A stretch of 62,372 nt of DNA, filler included. It is 4 parts of 4 records of this genome, joined end to end, with 100 filler letters (N's around TTAATTAATTAA, not from the genome) between each part and the next. Parts side by side here need not be neighbours in the genome. Positions count along the whole stretch, not along the records: positions 1 to 22,282 come from DRR378314_1391; 3 more parts are not named here. The stretch is one strand, 5' to 3'. Positions 1 through 15,010 of this stretch are shown piece after piece. The notes beneath the pieces are model-generated. The model had not been told where the DNA came from, ran no database searches, and saw only the letters and a program-made list of their open reading frames with translations. Both the position numbers and the translations under genes were made by a program. Each line of letters starts with the position of its first letter. Position 1 is the first letter of the stretch.

Positions 1-55
1 GATAGAATAGAAGTTTCCTAAACTTTAGATGCAAGTTCGATTCTTGCCGGGGCCA
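1..55 (+). tRNA. tRNA-Arg(CCT), 5'-truncated by the window edge
   Basis: Anticodon arm GAAGT-TTCCTAA-ACTTT (10-26, anticodon CCT at 17-19), T arm GCAAG-TTCGATT-CTTGC (31-47), acceptor 3' strand CGGGGCC plus A. Confidence 0.9.
33..53 (+). repeat. att core, tRNA-side junction
   Basis: AAGTTCGATTCTTGCCGGGGC, the T-arm/acceptor part of the tRNA, repeated at 9499-9519. Confidence 0.9.
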
Positions 56-145
56 CTTTTTGACTTCCGAATGATTCAAAAAATCATTAAATAAATGAAA
101 ATCAAGCATTTAATATTTTTTGATTTTAATTGAATTCCTTTGATT

Positions 146-286: not shown

Positions 287-1555
287 ATGAGGTCAAATTC
301 CACTTTTTCCGTCCTATTTTGGCTTTATTCCGGTAGGTCAAAGAATGGCACAGCTCCCATTTATGCCAGGATTTCTGTCAATGGAAAAAAGCTCAACATC
401 AGTTTAAAGCGAAGAATCCAAATCAATGAATGGGATTCAAACAAGCAGCGTGTGAAAAATTCTTCTATTCATGCTAAATCAACCAACCAATATCTTGATG
501 AGTTCTACTCCGGTCTTTTCCATTCATTTCAACAATTGCGAATAGAGGGTAAGCACATCACCTCTCATAGTGTAAAGGCCAGATTTATGGATGAGGAGAC
601 GGATAATCAACATTTTACCATGAAGGACTTAGTGTCCTATCATAATTCCAATATGTTTCCTAAGCTACATTGGAATACTTCAAGATTATATCTCACCAGT
701 CAGAAGTATATTTTTTTGTTTTTGAAGAAAAAATTAAAAAAAGAAGATATCCGACTTGATGAATTGAACTACAAGTTCATCCTTGACTTTGAAAATTTTC
801 TTCGTAGGCACAAACCCAATCATTACCAACAACAAATTGGTAACAACGCTGTAATGAAACATATCCAAAGATTACGAAAAATGGTCTCTCTGGCTTATCG
901 ACTGGAGTGGATAGATAAAGACCCTTTTAGACAGTTTAAGCAGAGATTGACTCCTACAAATAGAGAGTATTTAGGTTCCGAGGAACTTCAAGCGATTGAA
1001 GAGCTCAAACTTGATAGCAATCGGCTGAAAACAGTCCGGGATCTTTTTGTGTTCAGTTGCTATACCGGGGTATGTTATACGGATTTAATGCTATTAACCG
1101 AAGATAATGTGGTCATGGGCATAGACAAAAAATATTGGATAATTACCAAAAGACAGAAGACTCATAACCCTGTCAAAATCCCACTTTTAAAAAAAGCGCT
1201 TGACTTGATTGAACTTTATAAAGAGGATACCAGGTCTATTATAAACAACACTTTGTTTCCTAGAATCTCCAACCAAAAGATGAACGCGTATTTGAAAGAG
1301 ATTGCGAGTGAAGCAAAAATCAAAAAGAATTTGACATTTCATATGGCAAGGCACACGTTCGCTACGACGGTTACCTTGACCAATGGTGTACCCATAGAAA
1401 CCATTTCAAAAATGTTGGGACATCGAAAACTAACCACTACCCAGATTTATGCAAAGGTTCTGGAAAGAAAAGTGGGTGAGGATATGGAGATTTTGAGAAA
1501 TAAATTGGAAGTAGCAACGGAATCAGAATTAAAGAACAAAGCGAACGAAGGGTAA
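287..1555 (+). CDS. Site-specific tyrosine integrase (Bacteroidota IntDOT-like; arm-binding, SAM-like and catalytic domains)
   Basis: N-terminal PIYARISVNG arm domain; RDLFVFSCYTG, RQKT, FHMARHTFAT, LGH and TQIYAK motifs; next to the tRNA att site. Confidence 0.95.
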   Translation: MRSNSTFSVLFWLYSGRSKNGTAPIYARISVNGKKLNISLKRRIQINEWDSNKQRVKNSSIHAKSTNQYLDEFYSGLFHSFQQLRIEGKHITSHSVKARFMDEETDNQHFTMKDLVSYHNSNMFPKLHWNTSRLYLTSQKYIFLFLKKKLKKEDIRLDELNYKFILDFENFLRRHKPNHYQQQIGNNAVMKHIQRLRKMVSLAYRLEWIDKDPFRQFKQRLTPTNREYLGSEELQAIEELKLDSNRLKTVRDLFVFSCYTGVCYTDLMLLTEDNVVMGIDKKYWIITKRQKTHNPVKIPLLKKALDLIELYKEDTRSIINNTLFPRISNQKMNAYLKEIASEAKIKKNLTFHMARHTFATTVTLTNGVPIETISKMLGHRKLTTTQIYAKVLERKVGEDMEILRNKLEVATESELKNKANEG

Positions 1556-1857: not shown

Positions 1858-2048
1858 ATTTTTGACTAAAAAAGGCATTAAGCCCTGTAAAATCAATAGA
1901 TTTTTGACTAAAAAATGGTTTTTCTAAGTCAAGGTTAAGAGCACAATGAAGACATTTCTTAGCAGTATTAAGTTAGAGGGCTAATGTTCTATTTTTGTTG
2001 AAAAAATGCGCTCACCCCAGTGAAATCAACAAATTTTTGTGGAAAAAA
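1858..2048. repeat. Four ATTTTTG-NNN-AAAAAA boxes in two pairs, each pair 42 bp apart
   Basis: ATTTTTGACTAAAAAA at 1858-1873 and 1900-1915; ATTTTTGTTGAAAAAA at 1991-2006; ATTTTTGTGGAAAAAA at 2033-2048; similar spacers (CCC...AAATCAA). Confidence 0.65.
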
Positions 2049-2436
2049 CAATGAAGTAACTGCTTTGGTCGTTACATTTTTTGCCTCGCTCAGTAAATTA
2101 GTTTCGGTAAGATTTGGGGCTTGCAGCGCGAAACTTGGTTTCGCTCGCCCTTTTCAGGACTTCCATTAAATGCAAGGTGGTTTTAAGGAATGAAAATTGA
2201 GGTTACTAAAGATTTTGGTACGATTTGACATCTCTAGCGCGACTTATTACCAAAATTTGAAATATCCGGCGCTTTCTGGGGATTTGAGGTTTTTTAGCAA
2301 GAATGTTAGGAATTGTTTTTCTTCAAGCCTGCTATTTCCAATTTATTAGAAGCGACCAACTTAATCTTTATTTTCATTAGAATCAAAGACGACTTTATCA
2401 TTTTAAAAACCTATGCAGTCGTTGGAGATTAAACAA

Positions 2437-2487
2437 AAATCATAAAAAAAGAGGTCAGTTTTAAAGATGACCTCTTTTTTATGATTT
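2437..2487. terminator. Bidirectional intrinsic terminator-like hairpin downstream of the precursor peptide gene
   Basis: Long inverted repeat AAATCATAAAAAAAGAGGTCA / TGACCTCTTTTTTATGATTT with A and T tracts on both arms. Confidence 0.7.
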
Positions 2488-2716
2488 GAAAAGCTTTTTC
2501 CTGTTGATATCTAAAAATAACACGTTCTGATAGTTGTTATCATACCATGTTTAATTAAAGATTCTTACACGACGATATTTTCATCTCACGTGGACTTTAC
2601 TTTTGTAGTTTTAATTCATCGATACTAGTTAATCCCTTAATGTTGTCTCTTACGAAAATGATAGTTCAATCGTATTTTAAGATTCCATGTAGGTAATACC
2701 AAAGAATCGACAACAT

Positions 2717-2860
2717 TTACTCGTTACAGGGAAAACAGGCATTATGTTCTGTATGCCAGCACATATTTCCTGGGCACGAACCATAACCGCCATTAATAGC
2801 TTTCATTTCATTTTTGTTTAAAGTTTTTCCGGAGTTGAAACTCAAAATTGAATTTTTCAT
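2717..2860 (-). CDS. Double-glycine-leader precursor peptide (bacteriocin/RiPP-like), 47 aa
   Basis: Manual translation MKNSILSFNSGKTLNKNEMKAINGG|YGSCPGNMCWHTEHNACFPCNE*; leader ends in L-x-x-x-E-M-K-x-I-x-GG; divergent from the C39 ABC exporter; below the ORF track's 60-aa cutoff. Confidence 0.88.
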   Translation of the reverse strand: MKNSILSFNSGKTLNKNEMKAINGGYGSCPGNMCWHTEHNACFPCNE

Positions 2861-3108
2861 ATTGACTATAAATTAAATTTGACTTCTTGAAAGTAATAAG
2901 AAAAGGTGAATTATGAAAATTATTTAGATATTTGTAAGTGATTAATATTATTTTAGACAATATTTCCTACAATAAAACAAAAATTTAGCTTTATTTTTAA
3001 GAAAAAGATAGAAGACACGATTGGGATATTTGGCTTTAATCTCAAAGGGTTTTCTTAAATTTCAGTATTAAAAAACCCTTAAGAGGTTTTTATGTAACCC
3101 AAAAAACA

Positions 3109-5301
3109 ATGCCCAAACGCTTTCCAAATTACCTGCAGCCCGGAGCAAAGGACTGCGGGCCCACATGCCTTCGTATCATTGCCAAACACTATGGTAAGAC
3201 AATTTCCGTGGAAAAGCTTCGCAATTCAGCGGAAACCGTTAGGGAGGGCAGCAGTCTTTTAGGTCTTAGCAATGCAGCGGAGATAATCGGTTTCCGATCA
3301 TTGGGTGCTAGAGTATCCTTGGAAAAACTTTTGGAGGCGCCGCTCCCATGCATCATTCATTGGAGCAAGAACCATTTTGTAGTGCTTTATCGGATAAAAG
3401 GGAACTTATTTTATGTCTCCGATCCGGCCCATGGTTTGCTAAGGTATGACCAGAATGAATTTTTAACGTATTGGATAGGCAACAATTCGGACGAGAACAC
3501 GGAGGAGGGTATCGCATTGTTTTTGGAACCGAGCCCTAAATTCTACGAGAACGAATGGGAGGACACGGAGGACAGGTTGGATTTTGCCTATCTAACCAAG
3601 TACCTGTTTCGGTACAAACACCTCATTTGGCAGCTGGTAATCGGTTTGATTGCGGGGAGCACGCTCCAGTTGATATTTCCCTTCCTGACCCAGAGCATCG
3701 TTGATGTGGGCATACGGAATAGGGATATCAACTTTGTCTATCTTATTCTTTTCGCACAATTGGCACTTTTCCTCGGGCGTACTTCCGTGGAGGTAATCCG
3801 CAGCTGGATATTGCTGCACCTGAGTACACGGATCAATATTTCCTTGGTCTCCGACTTTTTTATCAAGTTGATGAAACTGCCAATCTCCTATTTCGATACA
3901 AGGATGACAGGGGATATCCTACAACGCATCAACGATCATAAAAGGATAGAACAAATTCTGACCACATCATCCTTGAACGTACTTTTTTCTATGGTAAGCC
4001 TATTGGTTTTCGGTATAGTACTGGCCTACTATAACATTTATATATTTTTGACTTTTATGGCAGGTAGCATCCTTTATTTCGGATGGATCATATTGTTTAT
4101 GAAAAAGAGGGCCGATTTGGACTATAAACGATTTTCGCAGATTAGTCAGGAACAAAGCAAGGTAATCGAGCTTATCAATGGTATGCAGACCATCAAGCTG
4201 AACAATGCAGAGCGGAAAAAACGTTGGGGGTGGGAATTTTTGCAGGTGCGGCTATTCAAGGTATCTATGAAGGGGCTTGCACTGGAACAATGGCAAAACG
4301 TTGGCTCCGGATTCATCAACGAGTTCAAGAATATTATAATAACCGTACTTTCCGCGAAACTGGTCATCGATGGCGACATTACCCTTGGAATGATGCTCGC
4401 CATATCCTATATCGTTGGACAGATGAACGCTCCAATCAGCCAGGTTATCAATTTTGTCAGGGAGGTACAGGATGCAAAACTATCCCTGGAAAGGTTGGCG
4501 GAAATCCATAACAAGGAGGACGAGGAACGGGATGCCGGGAGCAAGATCGGCACCGTTGATGCAGACCTTTCTTTGGATATAAGGAATATTTCCTTTAAGT
4601 ACACCGGTTCGGACAGCTTTGTTTTCGAAGGACTGAATCTTTTTATTCCAGCAAAAAAGGTAACGGCGATAGTTGGTCCTAGCGGCAGCGGAAAAACAAC
4701 ATTGTTAAAAATGCTCATGAAGTTCTACGACCCCGATAAAGGGCAAATAAAGCTGGGCCCCCATAATCTTAAGAACGTCTCCCAAGCATTATGGAGGGAA
4801 CGTTGCGGTGTTGTCATGCAGGAGGACTATATCTTCAGCGATACGATTGCCCATAACATTGCTGTAGGGGTTGATAACACGGACAAAGATCGTCTTTCCC
4901 ATGCAGTCAAAACCGCTAACATCAAGAAGTTCATAGAAACTTTGCCGTTGTCCTATAATACAAAAATAGGGATGGAAGGCATCGGGTTGAGTACGGGCCA
5001 AAAACAAAGGTTATTAATTGCGAGGGCGGTCTATAAGAACCCAGACTACCTGTTCTTTGACGAGGCTACATCGGCTCTGGACGCAAACAACGAAAAAGTG
5101 ATCATGGAGAACCTGAATCTATTTTTTACCAACAAAACGGTGGTTGTCATCGCCCATCGGTTGAGTACGGTAAAAAATGCGGACCAAATTGTAGTGCTCG
5201 ACAAGGGCAAGGTGGTGGAACTGGGCAATCACAAGGAACTTACGGCCAAAAAGGGCGAATATTTTAACTTAGTGAGGAACCAACTGGAATTTGGAAAATG
5301 A
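3109..5301 (+). CDS. Peptidase-containing ABC transporter (C39 peptidase + TM + ATPase; SunT/LanT type)
   Basis: QPGAKDCGPTCL catalytic Cys, HFVV and DPA; Walker A GPSGSGKTT, signature LSTGQKQ, Walker B FFDEATSALD, H-loop IAHRLST. Confidence 0.96.
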   Translation: MPKRFPNYLQPGAKDCGPTCLRIIAKHYGKTISVEKLRNSAETVREGSSLLGLSNAAEIIGFRSLGARVSLEKLLEAPLPCIIHWSKNHFVVLYRIKGNLFYVSDPAHGLLRYDQNEFLTYWIGNNSDENTEEGIALFLEPSPKFYENEWEDTEDRLDFAYLTKYLFRYKHLIWQLVIGLIAGSTLQLIFPFLTQSIVDVGIRNRDINFVYLILFAQLALFLGRTSVEVIRSWILLHLSTRINISLVSDFFIKLMKLPISYFDTRMTGDILQRINDHKRIEQILTTSSLNVLFSMVSLLVFGIVLAYYNIYIFLTFMAGSILYFGWIILFMKKRADLDYKRFSQISQEQSKVIELINGMQTIKLNNAERKKRWGWEFLQVRLFKVSMKGLALEQWQNVGSGFINEFKNIIITVLSAKLVIDGDITLGMMLAISYIVGQMNAPISQVINFVREVQDAKLSLERLAEIHNKEDEERDAGSKIGTVDADLSLDIRNISFKYTGSDSFVFEGLNLFIPAKKVTAIVGPSGSGKTTLLKMLMKFYDPDKGQIKLGPHNLKNVSQALWRERCGVVMQEDYIFSDTIAHNIAVGVDNTDKDRLSHAVKTANIKKFIETLPLSYNTKIGMEGIGLSTGQKQRLLIARAVYKNPDYLFFDEATSALDANNEKVIMENLNLFFTNKTVVVIAHRLSTVKNADQIVVLDKGKVVELGNHKELTAKKGEYFNLVRNQLEFGK

Positions 5302-6595
5302 TATGCCGGACGAACTAAATGATATAGAAATCAGGAGCGAGGAAGTGCAAGACATACTTTCCAAGGTACCCCATTGGATGGTGCGCTGGGGCAGCTCCCT
5401 TTATCTAGGCCTGACCATCCTCATATTAGCCATTAGCTGGTGGGTCAAGTACCCGGATGTAATAGAAGCTTCGGTCGTCATAACCTCCCAAGAACCACCC
5501 CAAAAGGAGTTCGCCCGTACAAACGGGAAGTTCGATTCGATTTATGTAAAGGATTCCCAGTTGGTGAAAAAGAACACCTTGTTGGCCGTTATCGAAAATA
5601 CGGCGCATACCGAGGATGTACTATTTCTTAAATCCGTTCTGTATTCCCTAGATATCGAACAAAAGGATATAATATTTCCTATAAATGAACTGCCCATTTT
5701 GATATTGGGGGACATAGAGCCCGCCTTTGCGAGTTTCGAGGACAGTTATACGGAATATGAGATGAACAAATCCCTACTGCCCTTCTCCAATGAGTCTCTA
5801 GCCAACGAAGCCTCTTTGAACGAGCTTAAGGTCCGTTTGCAGAATATGCGGTCACAATATACGCTCAACGAGTCCGAGCTAAAACTCAAAAAGAACGATT
5901 TACAGCGGAATAGGGAGCTGTTGGAAAAAGGGGTCGTCTCCCAGCTGGATTATGAGAACAAGCAACTGGAAGTTATGAATACCGAAAAACAACTAAAAAC
6001 CTTGGGGGCCTCGATTTCTCAGATTAGGGAGTCGATGGCAACGGCCCTGAAGAACTTAAAAGGGAACGAGATTAGCAGGACCCGGGAAGAATCTAAACTA
6101 CTCAGGAAATCCTTTCAGAAACTTAACCAGCTCAAAAAAGCCATAAAAGATTGGGAATATACCTATGTCCTAAAATCGGATATTGAAGGAAAGGTCTCTT
6201 TCCTCAATTACTGGAGCAAGAACCAGACAGTGCAAATGGGTGATCTGGTTTTCACCATTGTTCCCAGGAATAATAAGGATTATTTGGCCAAAATGAAGGT
6301 CGCCGTACAAAATTCCGGAAAGATTAAAACCGGTCAAAGGGTAAACATTAAATTACGGAACTACCCCGAGGCAGAGTTCGGGATGTTGGAGGGACGTGTC
6401 TCCTCCATTTCGCAGGTTCCGAACAATGATGGTTTTTATCTGGTCGATGTGGAGCTGCCCGAACACCTTGTTACCAGTTATAGCAAGGAAATCGAGTTCC
6501 GCCAAGAAATGAGTGGGACAGGGGAGATTATTACCGAGGACCTACGCTTGTTGGAACGCTTTTTCTATCAATTCAAGAATGTGTTGGACAGATAA
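5291..6595 (+). CDS. HlyD-family membrane fusion (secretion adaptor) protein
   Basis: RSEEVQDIL...PHWMVRWG N-terminus, single TM, long coiled coil; overlaps the ABC exporter stop. Confidence 0.92.
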   Translation: MENDMPDELNDIEIRSEEVQDILSKVPHWMVRWGSSLYLGLTILILAISWWVKYPDVIEASVVITSQEPPQKEFARTNGKFDSIYVKDSQLVKKNTLLAVIENTAHTEDVLFLKSVLYSLDIEQKDIIFPINELPILILGDIEPAFASFEDSYTEYEMNKSLLPFSNESLANEASLNELKVRLQNMRSQYTLNESELKLKKNDLQRNRELLEKGVVSQLDYENKQLEVMNTEKQLKTLGASISQIRESMATALKNLKGNEISRTREESKLLRKSFQKLNQLKKAIKDWEYTYVLKSDIEGKVSFLNYWSKNQTVQMGDLVFTIVPRNNKDYLAKMKVAVQNSGKIKTGQRVNIKLRNYPEAEFGMLEGRVSSISQVPNNDGFYLVDVELPEHLVTSYSKEIEFRQEMSGTGEIITEDLRLLERFFYQFKNVLDR

Positions 6596-7189
6596 TATTT
6601 TTATGGTCGGCTCTTGAGAAAGACTCAGAAAATAATACACAGATATTATTGAATATCAAACTTATAAGTAGATATAAGGTCACAAGGCCTTGGTTTATAA
6701 ATAAACATTCAACCAAGTCAAATTTGGAAATTCTTTGTTTAAAAGTCCAGTAAATTTTACAAATGACCTACGCTTTTAAGCCAGACTTCCAAGAATTACT
6801 ATTTTCCATTTCAATGGCAACACCATCGATTATAGAACATAATATTAAAAAATACCTTTTTATAGAAAAATGCTTTTGGCACTGTGGACAAAAGTAATAA
6901 TGTATTATACACCGATTTTACATACGTTTTAATTCAGAAAAATAACTGATTGACGAATTTTTTTACAGTTTTTTCTTGTTAAACATCAAATCGCTATATT
7001 TAGTATCAAAACCCGCAATTGTTTGGTGTTTTAATGGAAATAAAAAACGATTTATGGAGGCATTATTCAGGTCGATTAGAAATTATCTTAACTTTTTGAA
7101 GTGTTTTAGCCAATAATATTCCTTAAACAATAAAGTTTCAATCCTATTTATTAGTTTCAAATTTTTGTCAAAAATTATAAAGGTAATTT

Positions 7190-8728
7190 ATGGATGCTAA
7201 ATTGATTGCAAGCTTGTCTAACTATCTAGGTTCCCAAAACATATGGATCTCCAAGCCGGAACTTGAGCTTCAGTTGTATAGTCGCCCCGATGCCCCATCA
7301 GCATATGCAATTTCGGAAACTCTTAATTTTTTTGGCATCAACAATATTGTAGTTCAATTAGAATTAGATCAAATAGATGAATTACCTGATAATTTTTTTG
7401 CCTTTATAACGGAGGGCCATAAGTCTTCTTTTGAACACGTAGTAAAGAAAGGGTCTCGGCTAAAGATAGGTGCCAAAATTTTCTCGAAAGAACAGTTTTT
7501 AGATATTTGGTCTGGGATAACTCTTTTGGCAGAAAAAAACGAAACTCCCGTAACCAAAGTAAAAAAGGGCTATTTAATTGTGGTTTATACATCGGTGATT
7601 GTTGTTACTCTTTTTTTTTCGTTTTCAAAAGGGATACAAAATTATATTTTTTTATTGTTGGGCCTTGTTGGTGTTTGGGTTTCCGATGAAATTTTTAAAA
7701 ATAGTATACAAGAAAACTCGTATTTAGGAAAAAAAATATGTGGCGAAAGCAAGGATAATATTTGTTACAAAATATCCAACGATAAAAATTACAGGATTGG
7801 ATCGTTCGGATTAAATGATTTCTTGTTTGCCTTTTTTGTAGCAACAATTGGTTTACAAATATTTCATCAAGAACTAGTGCCTCTGTTAAACCTGATTTAT
7901 GTTGCAGGCGTTCTGGCATTGATTTATACAATAATAGCGCAGGCTTTTTTCATTAAGGCGTGGTGTAGACTCTGTTTAACTGGCAGCGCAGTAATTCTTG
8001 CCCAATCTATCCTATTGGTTTCTGAATTTGGAAAAATTTTTCCTTTTCCAGGAATTGACGCCAAACGGTTGGTTTATGATTTATTTATTTTTGCCTTACT
8101 ATATTTGGGAGTTTTATTTTTTGTTCATCGATATAGAGAATTGGTGATTGCCAATAATCGATTGAGAGAAGAGCAAATAAGGCTTAAAAGGTTTAAAAGA
8201 TCTCCATCGGTTATCTCAAATTTAATAGGTGGCTCCCAACGTGTAAAATGGGATAACAACATAAACCCAATTACTTTTGGTAATCTTGTTTCCAAAACGA
8301 AAATAGTTTTGGTGCTTTCACTCTACTGCGGTTATTGTAAAACCGCATTTGAGGAATTACTTAAATTCTCCTACACAAATCCCAGTTATAAGTATGAGCT
8401 AATATTCAACCACCCAGACCTAGGTTCAAAGGAGAAGGTTGATATATTCAAAAAACTATTTTATGTCCTGAACACCAAAGGCAATGAAGCATTTTTGAAG
8501 GAATTGGAAATTTGGTTCAAAACCAAAAAATCAAATTTGTCAATGAAGGACGAAATAATTTTAGAAAAATCGGAAACTTCGATTTTATTGAGCCATAGGA
8601 ACTGGTGTAACAACAACGGAATATTTTATACCCCGGCGCTAATTATTAATAATATCGTTGTTCCTAATGAATACAATGTTTCGGACTTAAATGATATTAT
8701 AGAAACCATAATTGAGGATGGAGACTAA
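7190..8728 (+). CDS. Fusion of C39-like (probably inactive), VKOR and thioredoxin/DsbA-like domains
   Basis: N-terminal PDAPSAYAISETL...FLDIWSGITLLAE without an obvious catalytic Cys; VKOR-like loop Cys (KICGESKDNIC) and WCRLC; C-terminal YCGYC and YTP cis-Pro motif. Confidence 0.82.
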   Translation: MDAKLIASLSNYLGSQNIWISKPELELQLYSRPDAPSAYAISETLNFFGINNIVVQLELDQIDELPDNFFAFITEGHKSSFEHVVKKGSRLKIGAKIFSKEQFLDIWSGITLLAEKNETPVTKVKKGYLIVVYTSVIVVTLFFSFSKGIQNYIFLLLGLVGVWVSDEIFKNSIQENSYLGKKICGESKDNICYKISNDKNYRIGSFGLNDFLFAFFVATIGLQIFHQELVPLLNLIYVAGVLALIYTIIAQAFFIKAWCRLCLTGSAVILAQSILLVSEFGKIFPFPGIDAKRLVYDLFIFALLYLGVLFFVHRYRELVIANNRLREEQIRLKRFKRSPSVISNLIGGSQRVKWDNNINPITFGNLVSKTKIVLVLSLYCGYCKTAFEELLKFSYTNPSYKYELIFNHPDLGSKEKVDIFKKLFYVLNTKGNEAFLKELEIWFKTKKSNLSMKDEIILEKSETSILLSHRNWCNNNGIFYTPALIINNIVVPNEYNVSDLNDIIETIIEDGD

Positions 8729-9418
8729 ACTATTAAGTATGAGTTGATAGACACCGATGAGAATTAATTATTTATGATTAGTTTTGAAGTCTACGAAGCC
8801 AGCGTATTTTAAATAGTTTGTAATTCGGTTAGTGATCAAAGCATAAGCAAGGATAAACTCAGTAAATATAGGGTCTGACAGGGAAGGTTCGAATTCCTCA
8901 GCAAATTGGGAAGAGATTGACTCTAATTCTCCTTTTTCCCAAGAGATTTGTTTACAACTGTATTACATTATGACACTGTTTACATTATAGGAGGCAGGAA
9001 TAATGAGTCTAGACTAAATGATGTTTGGGTTATGAATGTGGATTAGAATAGTTTTACTTCAACTCTAGTGGCACCAATTTGGGAATAAATAATTATATTT
9101 TCAACGCACCTATCGCCGAAAGTTCCATTCCAAATTAAGTAAGGGTAGACTAGAACACTCTATTTATTTTCCTGTTCTGGTAAGAAATAGTTATTTGGAA
9201 GGATTTTGAAAAGGGTATTTGACTTTAAAGTTTTTCCAATTTATTCAGAGATAAGTTCAGGCTGTACCTTGGTTGTTAACCATCACTTAAATTTAGTCCA
9301 AGTCCAGTCCATATTGGTTGAATATTTTTCCGTTATAAAGGTTTATAAAAGATAGACTTTCATTTATAAATCAATCATTTATAGCTGTTTGTTTATCTTT
9401 GGAATGACGAAAGTCAAA

Positions 9419-9452
9419 TTGACTTTAAGAGTTCACAAATCGTCAACATTTT
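9419..9452 (+). repeat. Candidate integrase arm-type site (right copy)
   Basis: 33/34 match to 146-179; adjacent GACGAAAGTCAAAT (9406-9419) is the exact reverse complement of 242-255. Confidence 0.7.
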
Positions 9453-9498
9453 GAAATCAAAAAGTGAAGACCCCAATAAAATTGGGGGTCCGAGAGAA

Positions 9499-9519
9499 AA
9501 GTTCGATTCTTGCCGGGGC
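9499..9519 (+). repeat. att core, distal junction (duplicated tRNA 3' end)
   Basis: Identical to 33-53; preceded by hairpin GACCCCAAT-AAA-ATTGGGGGTC (9469-9490). Confidence 0.9.
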
Positions 9520-9551
9520 TACTTCTAAAGTTTTCATATTTAATAGGAGGA

Positions 9552-10484
9552 TTAAATATGCTCAAAGTCATATATCCAACTAAACTTCTTCTGTATAATA
9601 TGTCCTTTCCTTTCTTTTAAATAGTCCAAAAAAGCAACTGCTACGGGAGATAGGTTTTTAGACTTCAGCCATATAAGGTTCCACGTAGTGGTGATGGGCA
9701 GTCCTTTGACCGGAATTATTTTTAGCTCATTGTTTTTGAGCGCATTTTTGTTCCCTATAAGCGGCATTATTGAGCAACCTAGTCCTGAAATGACGGCTTG
9801 TTTTACAGCCTCATTTGAGGTGAGCTCCATTTTTTTGTTCACTGAATATCTATTTTTTTCAATAAAACTTTCCATGGCATTACGAGTGGCCGATCCGGGC
9901 TCCCGATAGATCAAAGGAATCTTTTCAAACAAATGTTTTTTGGAGATGGTCTTAGGTAGTTCCCTGTCATAATTGCTGACATAGAAAAGTTTGTTGGGCA
10001 TTAGTTCCACAGTATCGACATTCAGCTTTTCCGGAAGCACAGAGACCAGGGCAAAATCAACTTCATTAAGCTCCAAGCTCCTAACCACTTTAGATTTGTT
10101 GGTGACATCCATTATAAGGTCCACCCCTTTATTTTCCGTCATAAAATCGGACAAAAAGTAAGGCATCACATATTTTCCTGTGGATACCACTGATACCTTC
10201 AGCCGTCCCGAAAGGTTTCCTTGATAGGCCAAGGTTTTATAATTGATTTCTTCGACCTGATTGATAATTCGTTCGGCAGCCTGAGCTATTTCTTTACCAA
10301 AATCCGTAATAAAAAGTTGTCTTCCCACCACCTCGGTAAGTGGAATCGGGAACTGATCTTGAAATTTTTTTAGCTGTATTGAGACAGCTGGCTGGGTTAA
10401 ATGCAACTCCTCAGAAGCCTTTGTAATACTCTGTAGTTCAGATGTTTTAAGGAATATTTGTAGTTGGTGCAACGTATAATACAT
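9552..10484 (-). CDS. LysR-family regulator, CbbR/CmpR-like
   Basis: HTH TLHQLQIF...SITKASEELHLTQPAVSIQLK; REPGSATR and SNEAVKQAV motifs; divergent from the dab operon. Confidence 0.9.
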   Translation of the reverse strand: MYYTLHQLQIFLKTSELQSITKASEELHLTQPAVSIQLKKFQDQFPIPLTEVVGRQLFITDFGKEIAQAAERIINQVEEINYKTLAYQGNLSGRLKVSVVSTGKYVMPYFLSDFMTENKGVDLIMDVTNKSKVVRSLELNEVDFALVSVLPEKLNVDTVELMPNKLFYVSNYDRELPKTISKKHLFEKIPLIYREPGSATRNAMESFIEKNRYSVNKKMELTSNEAVKQAVISGLGCSIMPLIGNKNALKNNELKIIPVKGLPITTTWNLIWLKSKNLSPVAVAFLDYLKERKGHIIQKKFSWIYDFEHI

Positions 10485-10580
10485 AAAATATGTTAATGTA
10501 TGTTATTATAAATATAAATAAAAATTAATGAATTGTTTCCCTAACCTTTGCATTGGAAAAATTTTAAAAACAAAATTCTT

Positions 10581-10889
10581 ATGGAAGCAAAAGTATTACC
10601 TGAAGTTCTTACAGATCAAAGAAAAATTCAATTGGTGGACGGAACATTTACACCAACCGAGGCATCAGATGTGATGACCACCTTAATCGATGAAAAAATT
10701 AATTTCCATAAAATTCAAAGGTTGAAGATTTGGGAAGGCAATCATTCAAGTAAAACCAACATGCTTGATAATCGCATTGATGAATTGGAAAAAGAAAAAA
10801 TGACAGCACGGACCATTATAGAGCAAGCTCGAAAAAACGGGAAGAATATTACCATCAACGGCATCTTGGAAATAAAGTATGTGGACTAG
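10581..10889 (+). CDS. Hypothetical protein, first gene of the dab cluster
   Basis: ORF MEAKVLPEV...GILEIKYVD; ATG at 10581 preferred over the upstream TTG. Confidence 0.7.
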   Translation: MEAKVLPEVLTDQRKIQLVDGTFTPTEASDVMTTLIDEKINFHKIQRLKIWEGNHSSKTNMLDNRIDELEKEKMTARTIIEQARKNGKNITINGILEIKYVD

Positions 10890-10960
10890 ATAACTTCTCT
10901 CTTTCCAAAAACACAAACATCATAGTTGTAAATAAACCAACAAATTAAATTTTAAAAGGT

Positions 10961-11155
10961 ATGCAAAAGTCATTTAACAATACTGGAGTTTTTCTAATCA
11001 TATTATCGATAATCTCATTAATTGTAATGTCGTATGTAAACGAGTCCATTTTTATGGACCGCATTTTATTGTGCTGTTTCATTTTCGGCGCGGCGATTTT
11101 GGCAAGCAAGCGAAACGGACTGCAGAGGATTGATTCCAAGCAGAAAAAAGGATAA
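10961..11155 (+). CDS. Small two-TM hypothetical membrane protein
   Basis: 64-aa ORF with two hydrophobic stretches, co-oriented within the operon. Confidence 0.5.
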   Translation: MQKSFNNTGVFLIILSIISLIVMSYVNESIFMDRILLCCFIFGAAILASKRNGLQRIDSKQKKG

Positions 11156-11177
11156 TAGTTCCAAGTCTGGCAATACT

Positions 11178-12635
11178 ATGAAACCACTACAGAACATACT
11201 AACAAAACCTTCCGAAAAGAATGATGCCGCCGGGTTGATCCCGGTTTTATTTTGGCTGTTCTTTATTGGACACCTGATTTTTACCATTGTTTATTATCCC
11301 GATATACCGGAATGGAAATGGGGAGATATTTTTAGAACAAATGGGTTTACCGTTCTTTTATCGACCACGGTAACTTTTTTTAGTGCAATAATTAGCACCT
11401 ATGCCAATTCTTACTTCAAACATTCCGGGCAAAGACTCAGCTTTATGCTGTTTTGTCTTGGATTTACCGCTGCGGTAATTCTTTTTTTGGTGTCTGACCA
11501 CATTATTTTACTGTTGCTGAGTTGGTTTTTGATGGGAGCCATTATGTCCCGATTGATTGGTCTGGATAACAATTGGGGGGAAGCTTTTGAGGCCAAGCGT
11601 CTTGCGGGACACTACTTTTTGGCAAGTGGTGTTTGTTTAAGTTTTGGTCTATTTCTTTTGGCTGCATACCACAATGTGATCACCTTGAGTGGATTAATGC
11701 AAAAAGTTGGAACAACACCCAATTACCTCATGGTCATTTCTGCCCTATGTATCATAACGGCGGCTTTGATCCAATCTGCGATTTTCCCTTTCCATAAATG
11801 GTTGCTCTCTTCCATGACAGCACCCACCCCGGCCTCGGCTCTTATGCATGCTGGGTTTGTAAATGGTTCTGGAATTGTGCTCACTTTGCTTGCCTACGTA
11901 ATTATGGAATCAAAGACCACGGATATACTTTTTGTTATTGGGGGTCTTACGGCGGTCTTGGCTCAATTTACCAAATTGATACAGGTGAACGTAAAGCAAC
12001 GTTTGGCATGTTCTACCATTGCCCAAATGGGATTTATGATCATGCAATGCGGTCTCGGCTTTTTCAATGCCGCTATAGCCCACTTGATATTGCACGGTTT
12101 CTACAAAGCCTATTTGTTCTTGTCCTCCGGAGAGGGGGTTAAACAATCCGTGCCAGCGCAGCCTCCGACAATCCGCATTAAGTGGTTTCAAGCATTCATT
12201 GTGCTGCTCTACAGTGTTCTTGGAGCTTTCATTTTTGCACGATTGACAGGAAAGGGAATGGAATGGGATAGTGGAATTTTCCTGACTTTGATCGCATCTA
12301 TTGCTGTAGGACAAGCTACGTACAACATCGTAAAACAAAATTTGTTCACCGGAACCCAAAAAATAATTTTGCCTCCATTGCTCTTTTTGGCGGGGATAGG
12401 AGCTTATGCTTTAATGTACAATGGGGTATCATCCTTTATGACCGGAATGCAGGTGATTGCTGTTCCAACCTCAGTATCACTACTGCAAATAGTCTTTGGG
12501 CTGGTGTTTTTGATCGGGTTTTTCCTGATGAAGTTGGGCATTTATCGGGAGATCCCTGGTTTGTATGTGAAATTGATGAATTTGTCCCAACCCCATAGAA
12601 AGACCATTCTAATGTATAAAGCTAAAAACCAATGA
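11178..12635 (+). CDS. dabB: DabB/MpsA-type proton-conducting membrane subunit (NuoL/ND5-like) of an inorganic carbon transporter
   Basis: QSAIFPFHKWL...MTAPTPASALMHAG, STIAQMGFM and HLILHGFYKAYLFL motifs; ATGA overlap with the DUF2309 gene; ATG at 11178 preferred. Confidence 0.88.
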   Translation: MKPLQNILTKPSEKNDAAGLIPVLFWLFFIGHLIFTIVYYPDIPEWKWGDIFRTNGFTVLLSTTVTFFSAIISTYANSYFKHSGQRLSFMLFCLGFTAAVILFLVSDHIILLLLSWFLMGAIMSRLIGLDNNWGEAFEAKRLAGHYFLASGVCLSFGLFLLAAYHNVITLSGLMQKVGTTPNYLMVISALCIITAALIQSAIFPFHKWLLSSMTAPTPASALMHAGFVNGSGIVLTLLAYVIMESKTTDILFVIGGLTAVLAQFTKLIQVNVKQRLACSTIAQMGFMIMQCGLGFFNAAIAHLILHGFYKAYLFLSSGEGVKQSVPAQPPTIRIKWFQAFIVLLYSVLGAFIFARLTGKGMEWDSGIFLTLIASIAVGQATYNIVKQNLFTGTQKIILPPLLFLAGIGAYALMYNGVSSFMTGMQVIAVPTSVSLLQIVFGLVFLIGFFLMKLGIYREIPGLYVKLMNLSQPHRKTILMYKAKNQ

Positions 12636-15010
12636 AACATAGTGTACTTGATAAGTTTATAGAAGAGGCTTCTGATCACATAGGAAATACGTGGCCTCTG
12701 TATTCCTTTGTAACCTCCAATCCGTTGAGCGGTTATGAAAATTCACCTTTCCCATTGGCGGTAAAGCGGGCTAAAAAAGTTTTGGGCGCATCCGTATACC
12801 CAAAGGCATCCATATACAGAAAGGCTCTTGAAAATGGGGAAATCGAACTCTCGGAGCTTAAGGAGTTGTTCCAACAGAATGGTTATGAGAATTCACCGGA
12901 ATACTATCTGCAATTGATGGAGTCGCAAGAGGAATTGGTGAGAAAAAATCCACAACATATCTTGGATAGGGTTATGGTAAAATGGATCTCGGCCTTTTTG
13001 GATGAAGGACTGGCCGAGTGGGAAATGCCCTTTAAGTCCTTAGGATTTTATAAAGCCTGGAGAAAGCTTGCGCCTTACGATGATGACTTTAAGGGAATCA
13101 AGCTTTCCGATATTCCGAAAAACAGCAAGGATGCAATCGCTAGCTTGTTATCCGGTTTGTCCGATGAACAGATTCAAGATATTTTCACATACCACTTGGC
13201 TGCTCTACCCGGTTGGACGGGCTACATTAAACACAGAAAAACAAACCAACCACTGTGGCAGAAAAAATACCCAATAGATTTGGAAGAATACCTTGCCGTT
13301 CGTCTCTGGACCGCAAAACATCTCGGGATAACGTTTTTAGTGGAGCCATCTGCTGTAGAAACTAGCTGCAAAATTATGGAGCTCCAGTATATGTGGTTAA
13401 AAGCATGGGAGAAAAGCTGGCAATTGGAACTGGTTCGAATGCTGAAGGATGCGCCCGACAAAAGCGGGTCCAACAAATCAGAATATAAGATTCCCGATGC
13501 ACAAATGGTCTTTTGCATCGATACAAGATCCGAATTGATCCGAAGGCACGTGGAATCCAAGGGTTCCTACGAAACATTTGGCTATGCAGGCTTTTTTGGA
13601 ATTGCAATGGATTACGAAAACGAAAGGGATGGTGTTGTACAAAAGTCTTGCCCGCCTATCGTAGATTCATGTTACCAGGTTTCTGAAGAAGCTCTTGAGG
13701 GTAATCAACAATCCAAGAAAAATAAGGATAGAAAAAACGAACTCGTTAAATTCTGGGACTACTTCTTAAAGCGTATGAAGAATATGCTACCGTCCACCTT
13801 TGGCTTTGTGGAAGGTTCGGGCTTCTTTTATGGTTTGAACCTTGTTGCAAGAACCATAGCTCCCGTGGCGGCTTGGCGATTTGCAAACAAGGAAAAAGTC
13901 GCCTATGAAACCATTTGCGAGCCAGAGTTAAGAACAGTTGGCTCAAATATAGCTGTTCCCATAGCCCAACAGGCAGCCATTGTAAAATCCGGCTTTGATC
14001 TTATGGGATGGAAAAATTTTGCTCCGGTCGTGATTTTTGTGGGCCATGGAAGCCATTCTGCAAATAATCCTTTTGCATCAAGTTTAGATTGTGGAGCATG
14101 TGCCGCAAGCCCCGGTAGGCACAATGCGCGCATGCTGGCCAAAATGGCGAACAATGATCAGGTACGGGCCTTTCTCTCATCAGAATTTGGAATAGATATT
14201 CCAAGTTCAACCCTATTTATTGGCGCCGAACATAACACTACCACGGATGAGATCCAATTATTTGACTCCAACTTGTCTGACCATCACCAGAAATTAGTGT
14301 CAAACATCAAATCGAACCTTAAAAAAGCTCAGCAGTCAGCTACTCGGGAAAGGTTGGGTATTACAGGGAACAGCATGGCCCAAGTAAAAATCAATGCGTG
14401 TAACTGGGGAGAGACCAGGCCAGAATGGGGACTGGCCAAAAATGCAAGTTTTGTAATAGCTCCCAGAAAAGCAACAATGCACCGTAACCTCGATGGTCGT
14501 TGCTTCCTTCATTCATACGATTGGGAAATTGACAAGGAAGGAAAAGCATTGGAAGCTATAATGCAGGGCCCAATGGTAGTAACACAATGGATCAACAACC
14601 ACTATTATTTTGCTACAGTCGACAATGAAAGCTTTGGAGCTGGAACCAAAACAATACATAATATTACAGGGCAGTTTGGTGCAGTGCAGGGCAATGGCGG
14701 TGACCTTAAGATGGGATTGCCATGGGAGTCCTTGTATAGTTCAGAAAACAAACCCTACCATACACCTATAAGGCTTTCCGTAATCGTACAGGCCCCAAAA
14801 GAAAGGGTCAACACCATTCTTTCCAGAAACGAGAAACTAAGGTCGTTAGTGGAAAATGAGTGGATACACCTAATAATCATGGACCCTGTAGAGCAAATGG
14901 ATATATGTTGGCAAGACAATCAGGTTTTAAGGCCTAAAAAGGATAAAGGATATAATCCAAAAAAGGCCAAAAGTAAAAATGAAATACAAGAAGAATTGAC
15001 TATTGTGTGA
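12632..15010 (+). CDS. dabA: DabA/MpsB (DUF2309) soluble subunit of an inorganic carbon transporter
   Basis: WPLYSFVTSNPL N-terminus; Zn-ligand motifs FCIDTRSE, GHGS and LDCGAC; RPEWGLA, FLHSYD and GNGGDL motifs. Confidence 0.93.
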   Translation: MKHSVLDKFIEEASDHIGNTWPLYSFVTSNPLSGYENSPFPLAVKRAKKVLGASVYPKASIYRKALENGEIELSELKELFQQNGYENSPEYYLQLMESQEELVRKNPQHILDRVMVKWISAFLDEGLAEWEMPFKSLGFYKAWRKLAPYDDDFKGIKLSDIPKNSKDAIASLLSGLSDEQIQDIFTYHLAALPGWTGYIKHRKTNQPLWQKKYPIDLEEYLAVRLWTAKHLGITFLVEPSAVETSCKIMELQYMWLKAWEKSWQLELVRMLKDAPDKSGSNKSEYKIPDAQMVFCIDTRSELIRRHVESKGSYETFGYAGFFGIAMDYENERDGVVQKSCPPIVDSCYQVSEEALEGNQQSKKNKDRKNELVKFWDYFLKRMKNMLPSTFGFVEGSGFFYGLNLVARTIAPVAAWRFANKEKVAYETICEPELRTVGSNIAVPIAQQAAIVKSGFDLMGWKNFAPVVIFVGHGSHSANNPFASSLDCGACAASPGRHNARMLAKMANNDQVRAFLSSEFGIDIPSSTLFIGAEHNTTTDEIQLFDSNLSDHHQKLVSNIKSNLKKAQQSATRERLGITGNSMAQVKINACNWGETRPEWGLAKNASFVIAPRKATMHRNLDGRCFLHSYDWEIDKEGKALEAIMQGPMVVTQWINNHYYFATVDNESFGAGTKTIHNITGQFGAVQGNGGDLKMGLPWESLYSSENKPYHTPIRLSVIVQAPKERVNTILSRNEKLRSLVENEWIHLIIMDPVEQMDICWQDNQVLRPKKDKGYNPKKAKSKNEIQEELTIV

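Follow-up and report, generated by a model that had tools for sequence, protein, structure and literature searches.

How does a small cysteine-rich peptide that is made behind a double-glycine (GG) leader acquire its disulfides, and does this happen before or after it crosses the inner membrane? The question arises from a stretch of DNA of 62,372 nucleotides (hereafter the window), made up of four parts of four records of one genome joined end to end, in which positions 1 to 22,282 come from DRR378314_1391. A four-cysteine peptide gene, an ATP-binding cassette (ABC) exporter with its own peptidase domain and a putative disulfide oxidase of a fused kind are here the cargo of a 9.5-kb integrative island at a tRNA gene of a marine flavobacterium. 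The reading that we favour, and to which we give somewhat better than an even chance, is that the fused enzyme would hold the peptide by its leader and form the disulfides in the cytoplasm, after which the exporter, a peptidase-containing ABC transporter (PCAT), would cleave and export the product.

The precursor gene lies on the minus strand at 2717..2860, where the initial annotation had placed a 47-amino-acid (aa) open reading frame (ORF) of the same sequence and cysteine spacing. The 25-aa leader with its GG end is encoded by 2786-2860, the 22-aa core with four cysteines by 2720-2785, and the stop codon occupies 2717-2719. The precursor starts with MKNS, the leader ends in INGG, and the core is YGSCPGNMCWHTEHNACFPCNE, with cysteines at core positions 4, 9, 17 and 20 (C-x4-C-x7-C-x2-C). 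Residues 12-25 of the leader pass the NCBIfam model TIGR01847 (bacteriocin_sig) at 17.6 bits versus a cut-off of 15.7, in agreement with the GG leader that had been proposed, and the leader stays under the cut-offs of NF047798 (18.1 versus 23.5) and TIGR04149 (18.1 versus 25 bits, E 0.0019). The leader has a grand average of hydropathy (GRAVY) of -0.64, and the precursor has no hydrophobic (Sec) signal. The core has a computed net charge of -2.1 at pH 7 and an expected monoisotopic mass of 2494.8646 Da with two disulfides or 2498.8959 Da when reduced (both computed). A public gene call of an identical 47-aa protein exists on the source contig (P0005), and a word search of 5.8 billion clusters returned no relative of the precursor except its own record. 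When both strands of the whole 62-kb window were scanned with a detection rule (a GG, GA or GS leader with at least three K/R and no cysteine, then a core 12-70 aa long that contains three or more cysteines), the precursor alone was picked.

The strong terminator-like hairpin that had been claimed downstream is present on the minus strand at 2437..2487, about 230 nt past the peptide stop codon; it has a folding energy of -21.9 kcal/mol (z -5.39), is followed by a U run, and none of 200 shuffled sequences was as stable. A consensus terminator scan did not list it. The sigma-70 promoter scan was at background, with 26 sites found and 23.1 expected. One copy of TAnnTTTG, which we take to be the Bacteroidetes-type -7 motif, is found on the plus strand at 2874, 235 nt before the start of the ABC gene.

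The exporter gene (3109..5301, plus strand) is divergent from the precursor gene across a gap of 248 bp, and Pfam domains confirm the arrangement with an adjoining HlyD that was originally described. It encodes a PCAT of 730 aa with a C39 peptidase domain (aa 8-124), a membrane domain (aa 177-442) and an ATPase domain (aa 507-655), for which the matches to Peptidase_C39 (6.4e-32), ABC_membrane and ABC_tran are all above cut-off. The C39 domain has Q10, C16, H89 and D105, presumably the motif positions of that family. The gene for a HlyD-type periplasmic adaptor follows at 5291..6595 on the plus strand, overlapping the end of the ABC gene; it matches HlyD_3 (5.3e-12) and, under that model's cut-off, TIGR01843 (3.3e-32). 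Neither a GG peptide nor a convincing immunity ORF is present in the gaps at 6596-7189 and 8729-9346, and as the initial annotation had noted for the locus, there is no LanB/C/M, radical SAM, YcaO or ATP-grasp protein among the island ORFs of at least 100 aa.

A paralogue of the PCAT (68% DNA identity) is found in G001, the nearest genome compared, to which 29% of the sampled words of the window are common. We set it aside as an informative relative, as it belongs to a different cluster with an unrelated GG peptide. In that locus (L010, G001:C17:236000-254000) the GG-leader peptide has no cysteine pairs and is encoded together with a SPASM-domain protein and an ATP-grasp protein of the MvdD type; the system is probably of the graspetide kind.

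The fusion enzyme and the peptide genes beside it

The fusion enzyme is encoded by an ORF of 512 aa at 7190..8728 on the plus strand, 594 bp after the HlyD gene. As a single sequence it gives Pfam matches to Thioredoxin_4, Peptidase_C39 and VKOR that are all under threshold (VKOR, 16.6 versus a cut-off of 27.5) and nothing useful in NCBIfam, such that neither collection names the enzyme. A family profile compared with PDB sequences, together with fold searches, nonetheless bears out the C39-like/VKOR/thioredoxin fusion that had been suggested. The profile matches a DsbA-like protein (1z6m, 3.1e-11), ScsC (4xvw, 1.7e-7) and a VKOR-like protein (6wv9, 3.9e-7), with the Synechococcus VKOR at E values from 0.0032 (4nv6) to 0.42. 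A profile of the VKOR part alone matches 6wv9 (3.7e-6) and the Synechococcus VKOR (4nv6, 0.016), and the same part searched as a single sequence against the PDB gives chance matches only.

An AlphaFold2 (AF2) model of the enzyme, with a predicted local distance difference test score (pLDDT) of 87.9 and a predicted template-modelling score (pTM) of 0.70, agrees with these matches and defines three parts. The first (aa 1-124, 7190..7561) is C39-like, and Foldseek places it with the peptidase domains of ComA (3k8u, TM-target 0.62) and PCAT1 (7n87), with 5xe8 and 6v9z as further matches of this fold; by BLASTP it has no significant similarity to the C39 domain of the neighbouring exporter (E 0.17). 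The second (aa 125-337, 7562..8200) has six membrane helices, an extra helix at 125-145 and the VKOR core, as indicated by the model and the profile matches. The third (aa 338-512, 8201..8728) has a DsbA-like thioredoxin fold with the motif C380-G-Y-C383 and a cis-proline, P482, and in both the profile and the Foldseek comparisons it falls among DsbA-like proteins, with ScsC, BcfH, BdbD and DsbA as fold matches.

Across 38 aligned members the residues Q28, F69, C184, C192, Q251, C259, C262, C380, C383 and P482 are invariant. C184 and C192 are the VKOR loop pair, C259 and C262 the VKOR CxxC motif, and C380 and C383 the CxxC motif of the thioredoxin fold. The initial annotation had taken this locus to encode disulfide-forming machinery, and that part of the proposal stands, since the redox cysteines and the cis-proline are kept in all of these relatives; the C39-like part of the same protein, by contrast, cannot cut. 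The window protein has no cysteine in aa 1-124, none is conserved there among the members, and a C39-like domain without cysteine cannot be a cysteine protease, even though the oxyanion-type glutamine, Q28, is invariant. The inactive domain is best read as a leader-docking module.

A complex prediction of fusion aa 1-122 with the precursor gave a score of 0.41 as compared with 0.00 for the best of three controls; at least 76% of contacts are common to the docking runs, and the pLDDT of the partner is 56 or more. Of 78 solved complexes, 51 reached the mark used here, as did 2 of 108 mismatched pairs; at scores of 0.60 or less, those that reached it were only 5 of the 78 and every one of the 4 mismatches that passed (of 180). 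The prediction was made without family alignments, and because solved structures of ComA and of PCAT1 with its substrate exist, the score may mirror likeness to these only. The predicted complex thus gives a slight hint that the leader may dock onto this domain.

The enzyme belongs to a large family whose members go under the public names 'hypothetical protein' or 'uncharacterized membrane protein'. Searching 1.84 billion representatives with phmmer yielded 2938 matches at E values of 1e-3 or lower, with 1877 at or below 1e-10 and 189 at or below 1e-30, and nearly all of the best 150 matches are about 500-560 aa long and align from end to end. The distribution is patchy: in a sample of the phylum the gene is present in 30 of 401 genomes and in 14 of 180 genera, and within the same family the count is 10 of 29 genomes. 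Several genomes (G124, G188, G096 and G272) have two or three copies, and tandem copies, such as the pair at L046:3436-4965 and 6874-8442, sometimes enclose peptide genes.

Genomic contigs were scanned using the eight closest sequences, which gave 54 loci, 49 from Bacteroidota relatives (L011-L059) and five with distant VKORs. A GG-leader, cysteine-rich ORF that satisfies the detection rule occurs within 5 kb of the enzyme gene in 38 of the 41 loci in which a full-length homologue is followed by 1.5 kb or more of downstream sequence (38 of 44 if all loci with a full-length homologue are counted); L012, L015 and L018 have no such ORF. The candidates are concentrated near the enzyme, with 87 in 416 kb within 5 kb of the gene, 5 in 343 kb farther away in the same loci, and 2 in 162 kb of control loci. 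Arrays of three to six peptide genes, with six to eight cysteines per peptide, lie directly downstream in many loci. The association of enzyme and peptide is therefore family-wide, and homologous islands devoid of a GG-leader ORF, the finding that the initial annotation had named as contradicting its proposal, are confined, among these 41 loci, to the three exceptions.

The closest enzyme clade (32-38% identity) includes members from Ulvibacterium, Flagellimonas/Allomuricauda, Croceivirga, Saonia and others, and the consensus of the peptides beside it is MKKLSLKNLKxQxLxxSxMKxIxGG followed by ..YYCGxYYCxxVNPxAxCC. The window precursor aligns with 15 of these peptides, sharing the leader length of 25 aa and the invariant positions C29, C34, A41 and C42. 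The core, which had at first seemed to resemble nothing recognisable, thus has relatives, and from this alignment the window peptide appears to be a divergent member of the same group, with the same C-x4-C start and without the YYC/VNP motif. In 16 loci of this clade a DUF6734 protein (PF20508, E 1.8e-102) adjoins the enzyme and the peptides, as does an unnamed protein of 208 aa (for example L013:11551-13064 and L020:12070-13589). These two are possibly further maturation enzymes; no homologue of either is present in the window, and no mention of DUF6734 was found in the literature searched.

Probable membrane side and proposed course of the oxidation

On which side of the membrane the enzyme works can be approached from its helices. 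The model places these at 125-145, 149-172, 208-226, 231-255, 260-280 and 291 to about 313. The first helix of the Synechococcus VKOR aligns with helix 149-172, so that helix 125-145 is an additional one that separates the canonical first helix from the C39-like domain. By helix count, this domain ends up on one and the same side as the cysteine loop, the CxxC motif and the DsbA-like domain. The charges of the two sides are strongly biased. Among 148 homologues, the mean number of lysines and arginines on the docking/redox side is 1.5 before the extra helix (with a further 2.1 at the helix start), 4.46 in the cysteine loop, 1.53 before the CxxC motif and 6.96 after the last helix, as compared to 0.09, 0.10 and 0.18 in the three loops, of two to six residues, on the opposite side. 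In the outward-facing Synechococcus VKOR the loops that match these empty ones bear KRWR and HRW..K, and the cysteine loop has two K/R. Because the precursor lacks a hydrophobic signal, its leader-bearing form should be found only in the cytoplasm. Given the positive-inside rule, the lack of a signal peptide before the 124-aa domain and the presence of the leader only prior to export, we place the redox chemistry on the cytoplasmic face, with a confidence that is modestly above even.

The favoured pathway would then run as follows. The 47-aa precursor would be made in the cytoplasm with its 25-aa GG leader and no Sec signal, and the 512-aa membrane enzyme would grip the leader through its cysteine-free N-terminal domain. 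The DsbA-like domain, by way of its CGYC motif, would oxidise the four core cysteines to two disulfides, and the fused VKOR core would re-oxidise that domain through C184/C192 and then C259/C262, passing the electrons to a membrane quinone. This chemistry would take place on the cytoplasmic face, ahead of export, in that the extra helix puts the docking domain and all of the redox sites on the positively charged side. The active C39 domain of the PCAT would cut after GG and the transporter would export the 22-aa product, a route across both membranes being completed by HlyD together with an outer-membrane channel whose gene would lie elsewhere. The product would most likely be used against, or sensed by, other bacteria; by analogy an antibacterial role is the default, and the small size and negative charge of the core keep signalling and metal binding in play. 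Extended to the family, which has thousands of members, mostly in the Bacteroidota, the same reasoning would describe an inward-facing, quinone-linked disulfide synthase in which a dead C39 domain recognises leaders and peptides are knotted before export, a generalisation that we regard as evenly balanced.

Several observations weigh against this pathway. The cytoplasm is a reducing compartment, and to our knowledge every characterised bacterial VKOR faces outward. Among the charge controls, L061-L064, which are stand-alone VKORs from candidate-phyla bacteria and from an archaeon, likewise combine cysteine loops rich in K/R with empty loops between the second and third transmembrane helices, and L060 alone is canonical; the topologies of L060-L064 are not established and the charge argument is a statistical one. 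The detection rule was set post hoc, after examples had been seen, and the loci counted with it come from related genomes and are non-independent. A full PCAT lies within 10 kb of the enzyme in only 12 of the 49 loci (one further PCAT is truncated by the end of its contig) and a HlyD in 11, so that enzyme and exporter are not an obligate unit. The anionic core is unlike most bacteriocins, no immunity gene is visible, and the TAnnTTTG motif is absent upstream on the strand of the peptide. Finally, the match of the leader to TIGR04149, under cut-off at an E value of 0.0019, is to a model that NCBI names for radical SAM-modified peptides.

If the enzyme instead had the canonical direction, the VKOR core, the DsbA-like domain and the C39-like domain would all face the periplasm, oxidation would follow the crossing of the inner membrane, and the C39-like domain would hold the mature peptide or something else. 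The characterised bacterial VKOR-thioredoxin enzymes all work outside the cytoplasm, the Synechococcus VKOR being the nearest solved relative; some VKOR homologues whose topology is not established show the same charge pattern; and the bacteroidetocin paper takes oxidation by the thiol oxidoreductase of that cluster as extracytoplasmic (PMC6671954). However, this arrangement requires that a 124-aa N-terminal domain be translocated with no signal peptide and with KVKK before it, and it leaves the would-be cytoplasmic loops, of two to six residues, with about 0.1 K+R each in the 148 homologues. A leader-binding fold in the periplasm would moreover find no leader, since the exporter cuts during export, and the PCAT-HlyD route skips the periplasm. 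We consider a periplasmic enzyme unlikely, while leaving it appreciable weight. That cytoplasmic disulfide formation by an inward-facing enzyme is feasible is indicated by engineered inverted DsbB or VKOR, which reportedly form disulfides in the cytoplasm of E. coli (PMC4727284, citing Hatahet and Ruddock 2013).

The peptide could also be modified in trans, for example by a radical SAM maturase, with the disulfides being partial or a minor feature. The leader matches TIGR04149 under cut-off, a model whose name implies such a maturase, related peptides in the closest loci do pass that model (28.5 and 37.5 bits versus 25), and the closest clade has the DUF6734 and 208-aa proteins beside the enzyme in its 16 loci. 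The window, however, has neither of these, nor homologues of the SPASM and ATP-grasp proteins of G001; its core is without the YYC..YYC..VNP motif, and the island is otherwise self-contained. Modification in trans is improbable on this evidence.

Far less probable still is a general housekeeping system for envelope disulfides that merely lies near a peptide gene. A VKOR with a DsbA-like domain does constitute a full oxidation pathway in other bacteria, and the only VKOR-family ORF of G001 is without loop cysteines. This ORF (L065:1432-1995) encodes 187 aa, matches PF07884 at 75.5 bits and has a WCxLC motif and no loop pair, for which reason we rejected it as a topology control. Against a housekeeping role, the fusion gene is found in only the 30 of 401 phylum genomes and not in G001, it sits on an integrase island and within 5 kb of GG cysteine-rich peptide genes in 38 of 41 loci, and the enzyme bears the fold of a bacteriocin-leader protease. 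That the small ORF is a reading frame open by chance, or a gene that has decayed and fallen silent, is scarcely credible: there is no recognised promoter motif on its strand and the word search met only its own record, but its leader passes a model above cut-off, it is the sole rule match in 62 kb, it adjoins a PCAT, it aligns with the closest-clade peptides at four invariant positions, and a strong hairpin lies downstream.

The island and its flanks

The window starts within the tRNA gene that is the integration site, of which the 3' part remains at 1..55 on the plus strand (Rfam RF00005, 37.9 bits versus a gathering score of 29, model positions 17-71); ARAGORN called no tRNA at the window start because the gene is cut. 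The end of the tRNA gene is included in a 26-nt att-like direct repeat, D4, whose left copy (33..58, plus strand) is identical at 25 of 26 positions (96%) to the right copy at 9499..9524 on the plus strand, which marks the right end of the island. A second repeat pair of 34 nt is made up of 146-179 and 9419-9452. Between the repeats and close to the tRNA gene is a tyrosine integrase gene (287..1555, plus strand), with matches to Phage_integrase (6.6e-19), Arm-DNA-bind_5 (1e-15) and Phage_int_SAM_5 (2.3e-14).

G001 has an integrase at the same site with 89% DNA identity to that of the window, and the right flank from 9347 onward is 99% identical in the two. The cargo between integrase and flank differs, and in G001 it comprises four ORFs without family together with genes for a Kelch protein and a TPR hybrid kinase; the fusion protein has no match in that genome. 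The site is thus an integration hotspot that is prone to cargo swaps. The base composition of the window island is a mosaic, with the exporter genes at 44% G+C (3001-6500) and the peptide and fusion genes at 31-33% (2001-3000 and 6501-9500), and the PCAT has 63-71% aa identity to PCATs beside a distant enzyme clade as compared to only 55-58% to those of the closest clade. Taken together, the composition and the kinship of the exporter to another oxidase clade suggest that modules from two sources were recombined.

Other features of the island and its surroundings stand apart from the peptide. The region 8759-9046 is probably what is left of a gene with Kelch repeats: 8759-8902 has 79% identity to a stretch of G001, a 32-aa ORF at 8948-9046 resembles a Kelch blade, and an intact Kelch protein is encoded in the G001 island at this site. 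The 3' part of the integrase gene (1250-1507) is repeated at at least eight places in G001, and an 88-nt element (2081-2169) at five, all at 70-93% identity and with some copies of the element adjoining integrase pieces; the pattern suggests that these are related integrase islets of one family. Outside the island, at 9552-15010, the minus strand carries a LysR regulator gene, and divergent from it are a 113-aa ORF and a two-gene pair of the DAB type for inorganic-carbon uptake, composed of a Proton_antipo_M membrane protein (11130-12635) and DabA (12632-15010, E 3.4e-235).

Comparison with known systems

By likeness of content, the nearest described system is the bacteroidetocin (class IIf) cluster of the Bacteroidales (Coyne et al. 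2019, PMC6671954). There, a four-cysteine peptide with a GG leader is accompanied by a membrane protein of five helices, an exporter of the C39 ABC type and a thiol oxidoreductase. Secreted toxin activity depends, in that work, on the oxidoreductase as well as on the membrane protein, and the clusters showed no immunity gene. The window locus is from the same phylum and shares the four-cysteine GG-leader peptide, the C39 ABC exporter, a multi-pass membrane protein and a cluster-encoded oxidase. The differences, as far as that paper describes the clusters, are nonetheless considerable. Bacteroidetocins have a leader of 15 aa and a mature peptide of 42 aa with a charge of +2 to +6, whereas the corresponding values in the window are 25 aa, 22 aa and -2.1, and identity of the window peptide with a bacteroidetocin was ruled out on leader and core size. 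Their membrane protein and oxidoreductase are products of separate genes, whereas the window enzyme is fused and joined to a docking domain, and neither a HlyD nor a C39-like docking domain is described for them, both of which are present here. The window enzyme is also predicted to face inward, unlike the assumed site of bacteroidetocin oxidation, the comparison being one of cluster descriptions and not of sequences.

The Synechococcus VKOR-thioredoxin fusion (PDB 3KP9, 4NV2, 4NV5, 4NV6) shares with the window enzyme the loop pair, the CxxC motif and a fifth helix leading to a thioredoxin fold. It differs in having no N-terminal domain and no extra first helix, in carrying its positive charges on the opposite loops, and in being a general outward-facing oxidase without a link to peptide genes, whereas the window enzyme is peptide-linked. 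The C39-like domain in turn shares its fold with the C39 domains of ComA and PCAT1, but is joined to a redox enzyme and not to an ABC transporter. A parallel for its inactivity is the C39-like domain (CLD) of HlyB, which likewise lacks the catalytic cysteine, and the window domain presumably keeps substrate binding all the same.

Dedicated disulfide enzymes are encoded beside several disulfide-containing bacteriocins and are needed for their maturation, as with BdbA/BdbB of sublancin and PedC of pediocin. The TMcin cluster encodes a DsbA-like enzyme of this kind, TmcD (PMC13712780). All of these systems are Gram-positive and act at or outside the outer face of the membrane, and their oxidases have no leader-protease fold. 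Enzymes that act on peptides that are made by the ribosome and modified after translation (RiPPs) recruit their substrates via a separate leader-binding domain, and disulfide formation is not usually classed as a RiPP modification. As compared to the RiPP leader-recognition elements, the module of the window is a dead C39 protease fold, and disulfides would be the sole modification.

A phylogeny of VKORs mentions Bacteroidetes VKORs with 'additional N-terminal domains', in a text from which the words C39, peptidase and bacteriocin are absent (PMC4555120), and no literature linking VKOR with C39 domains or bacteriocin leaders was found in a search outside subscription journals and supplements. 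The bacteroidetocin literature leaves undescribed how the oxidase finds its substrate and where oxidation sits relative to export. The fusion suggests an answer to both, in that a docking domain is tethered to a VKOR-DsbA pair and shares with it one face of the membrane, probably the inner face. Were this so, the enzyme would be a leader-guided modifying enzyme with disulfide chemistry, the first bacterial VKOR directed toward the cytoplasm, and a natural counterpart of the engineered inverted VKOR, and it would offer a portable tool for making knotted peptides. The window alone is a modest gain, being one more member with an unusually short anionic core, and the enzyme family marks hundreds of unannotated peptide genes. 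The peptide-exporter-oxidase kit is itself of a known kind, and what is new here is the extra helix, the fused architecture and the probable inward direction of the enzyme.

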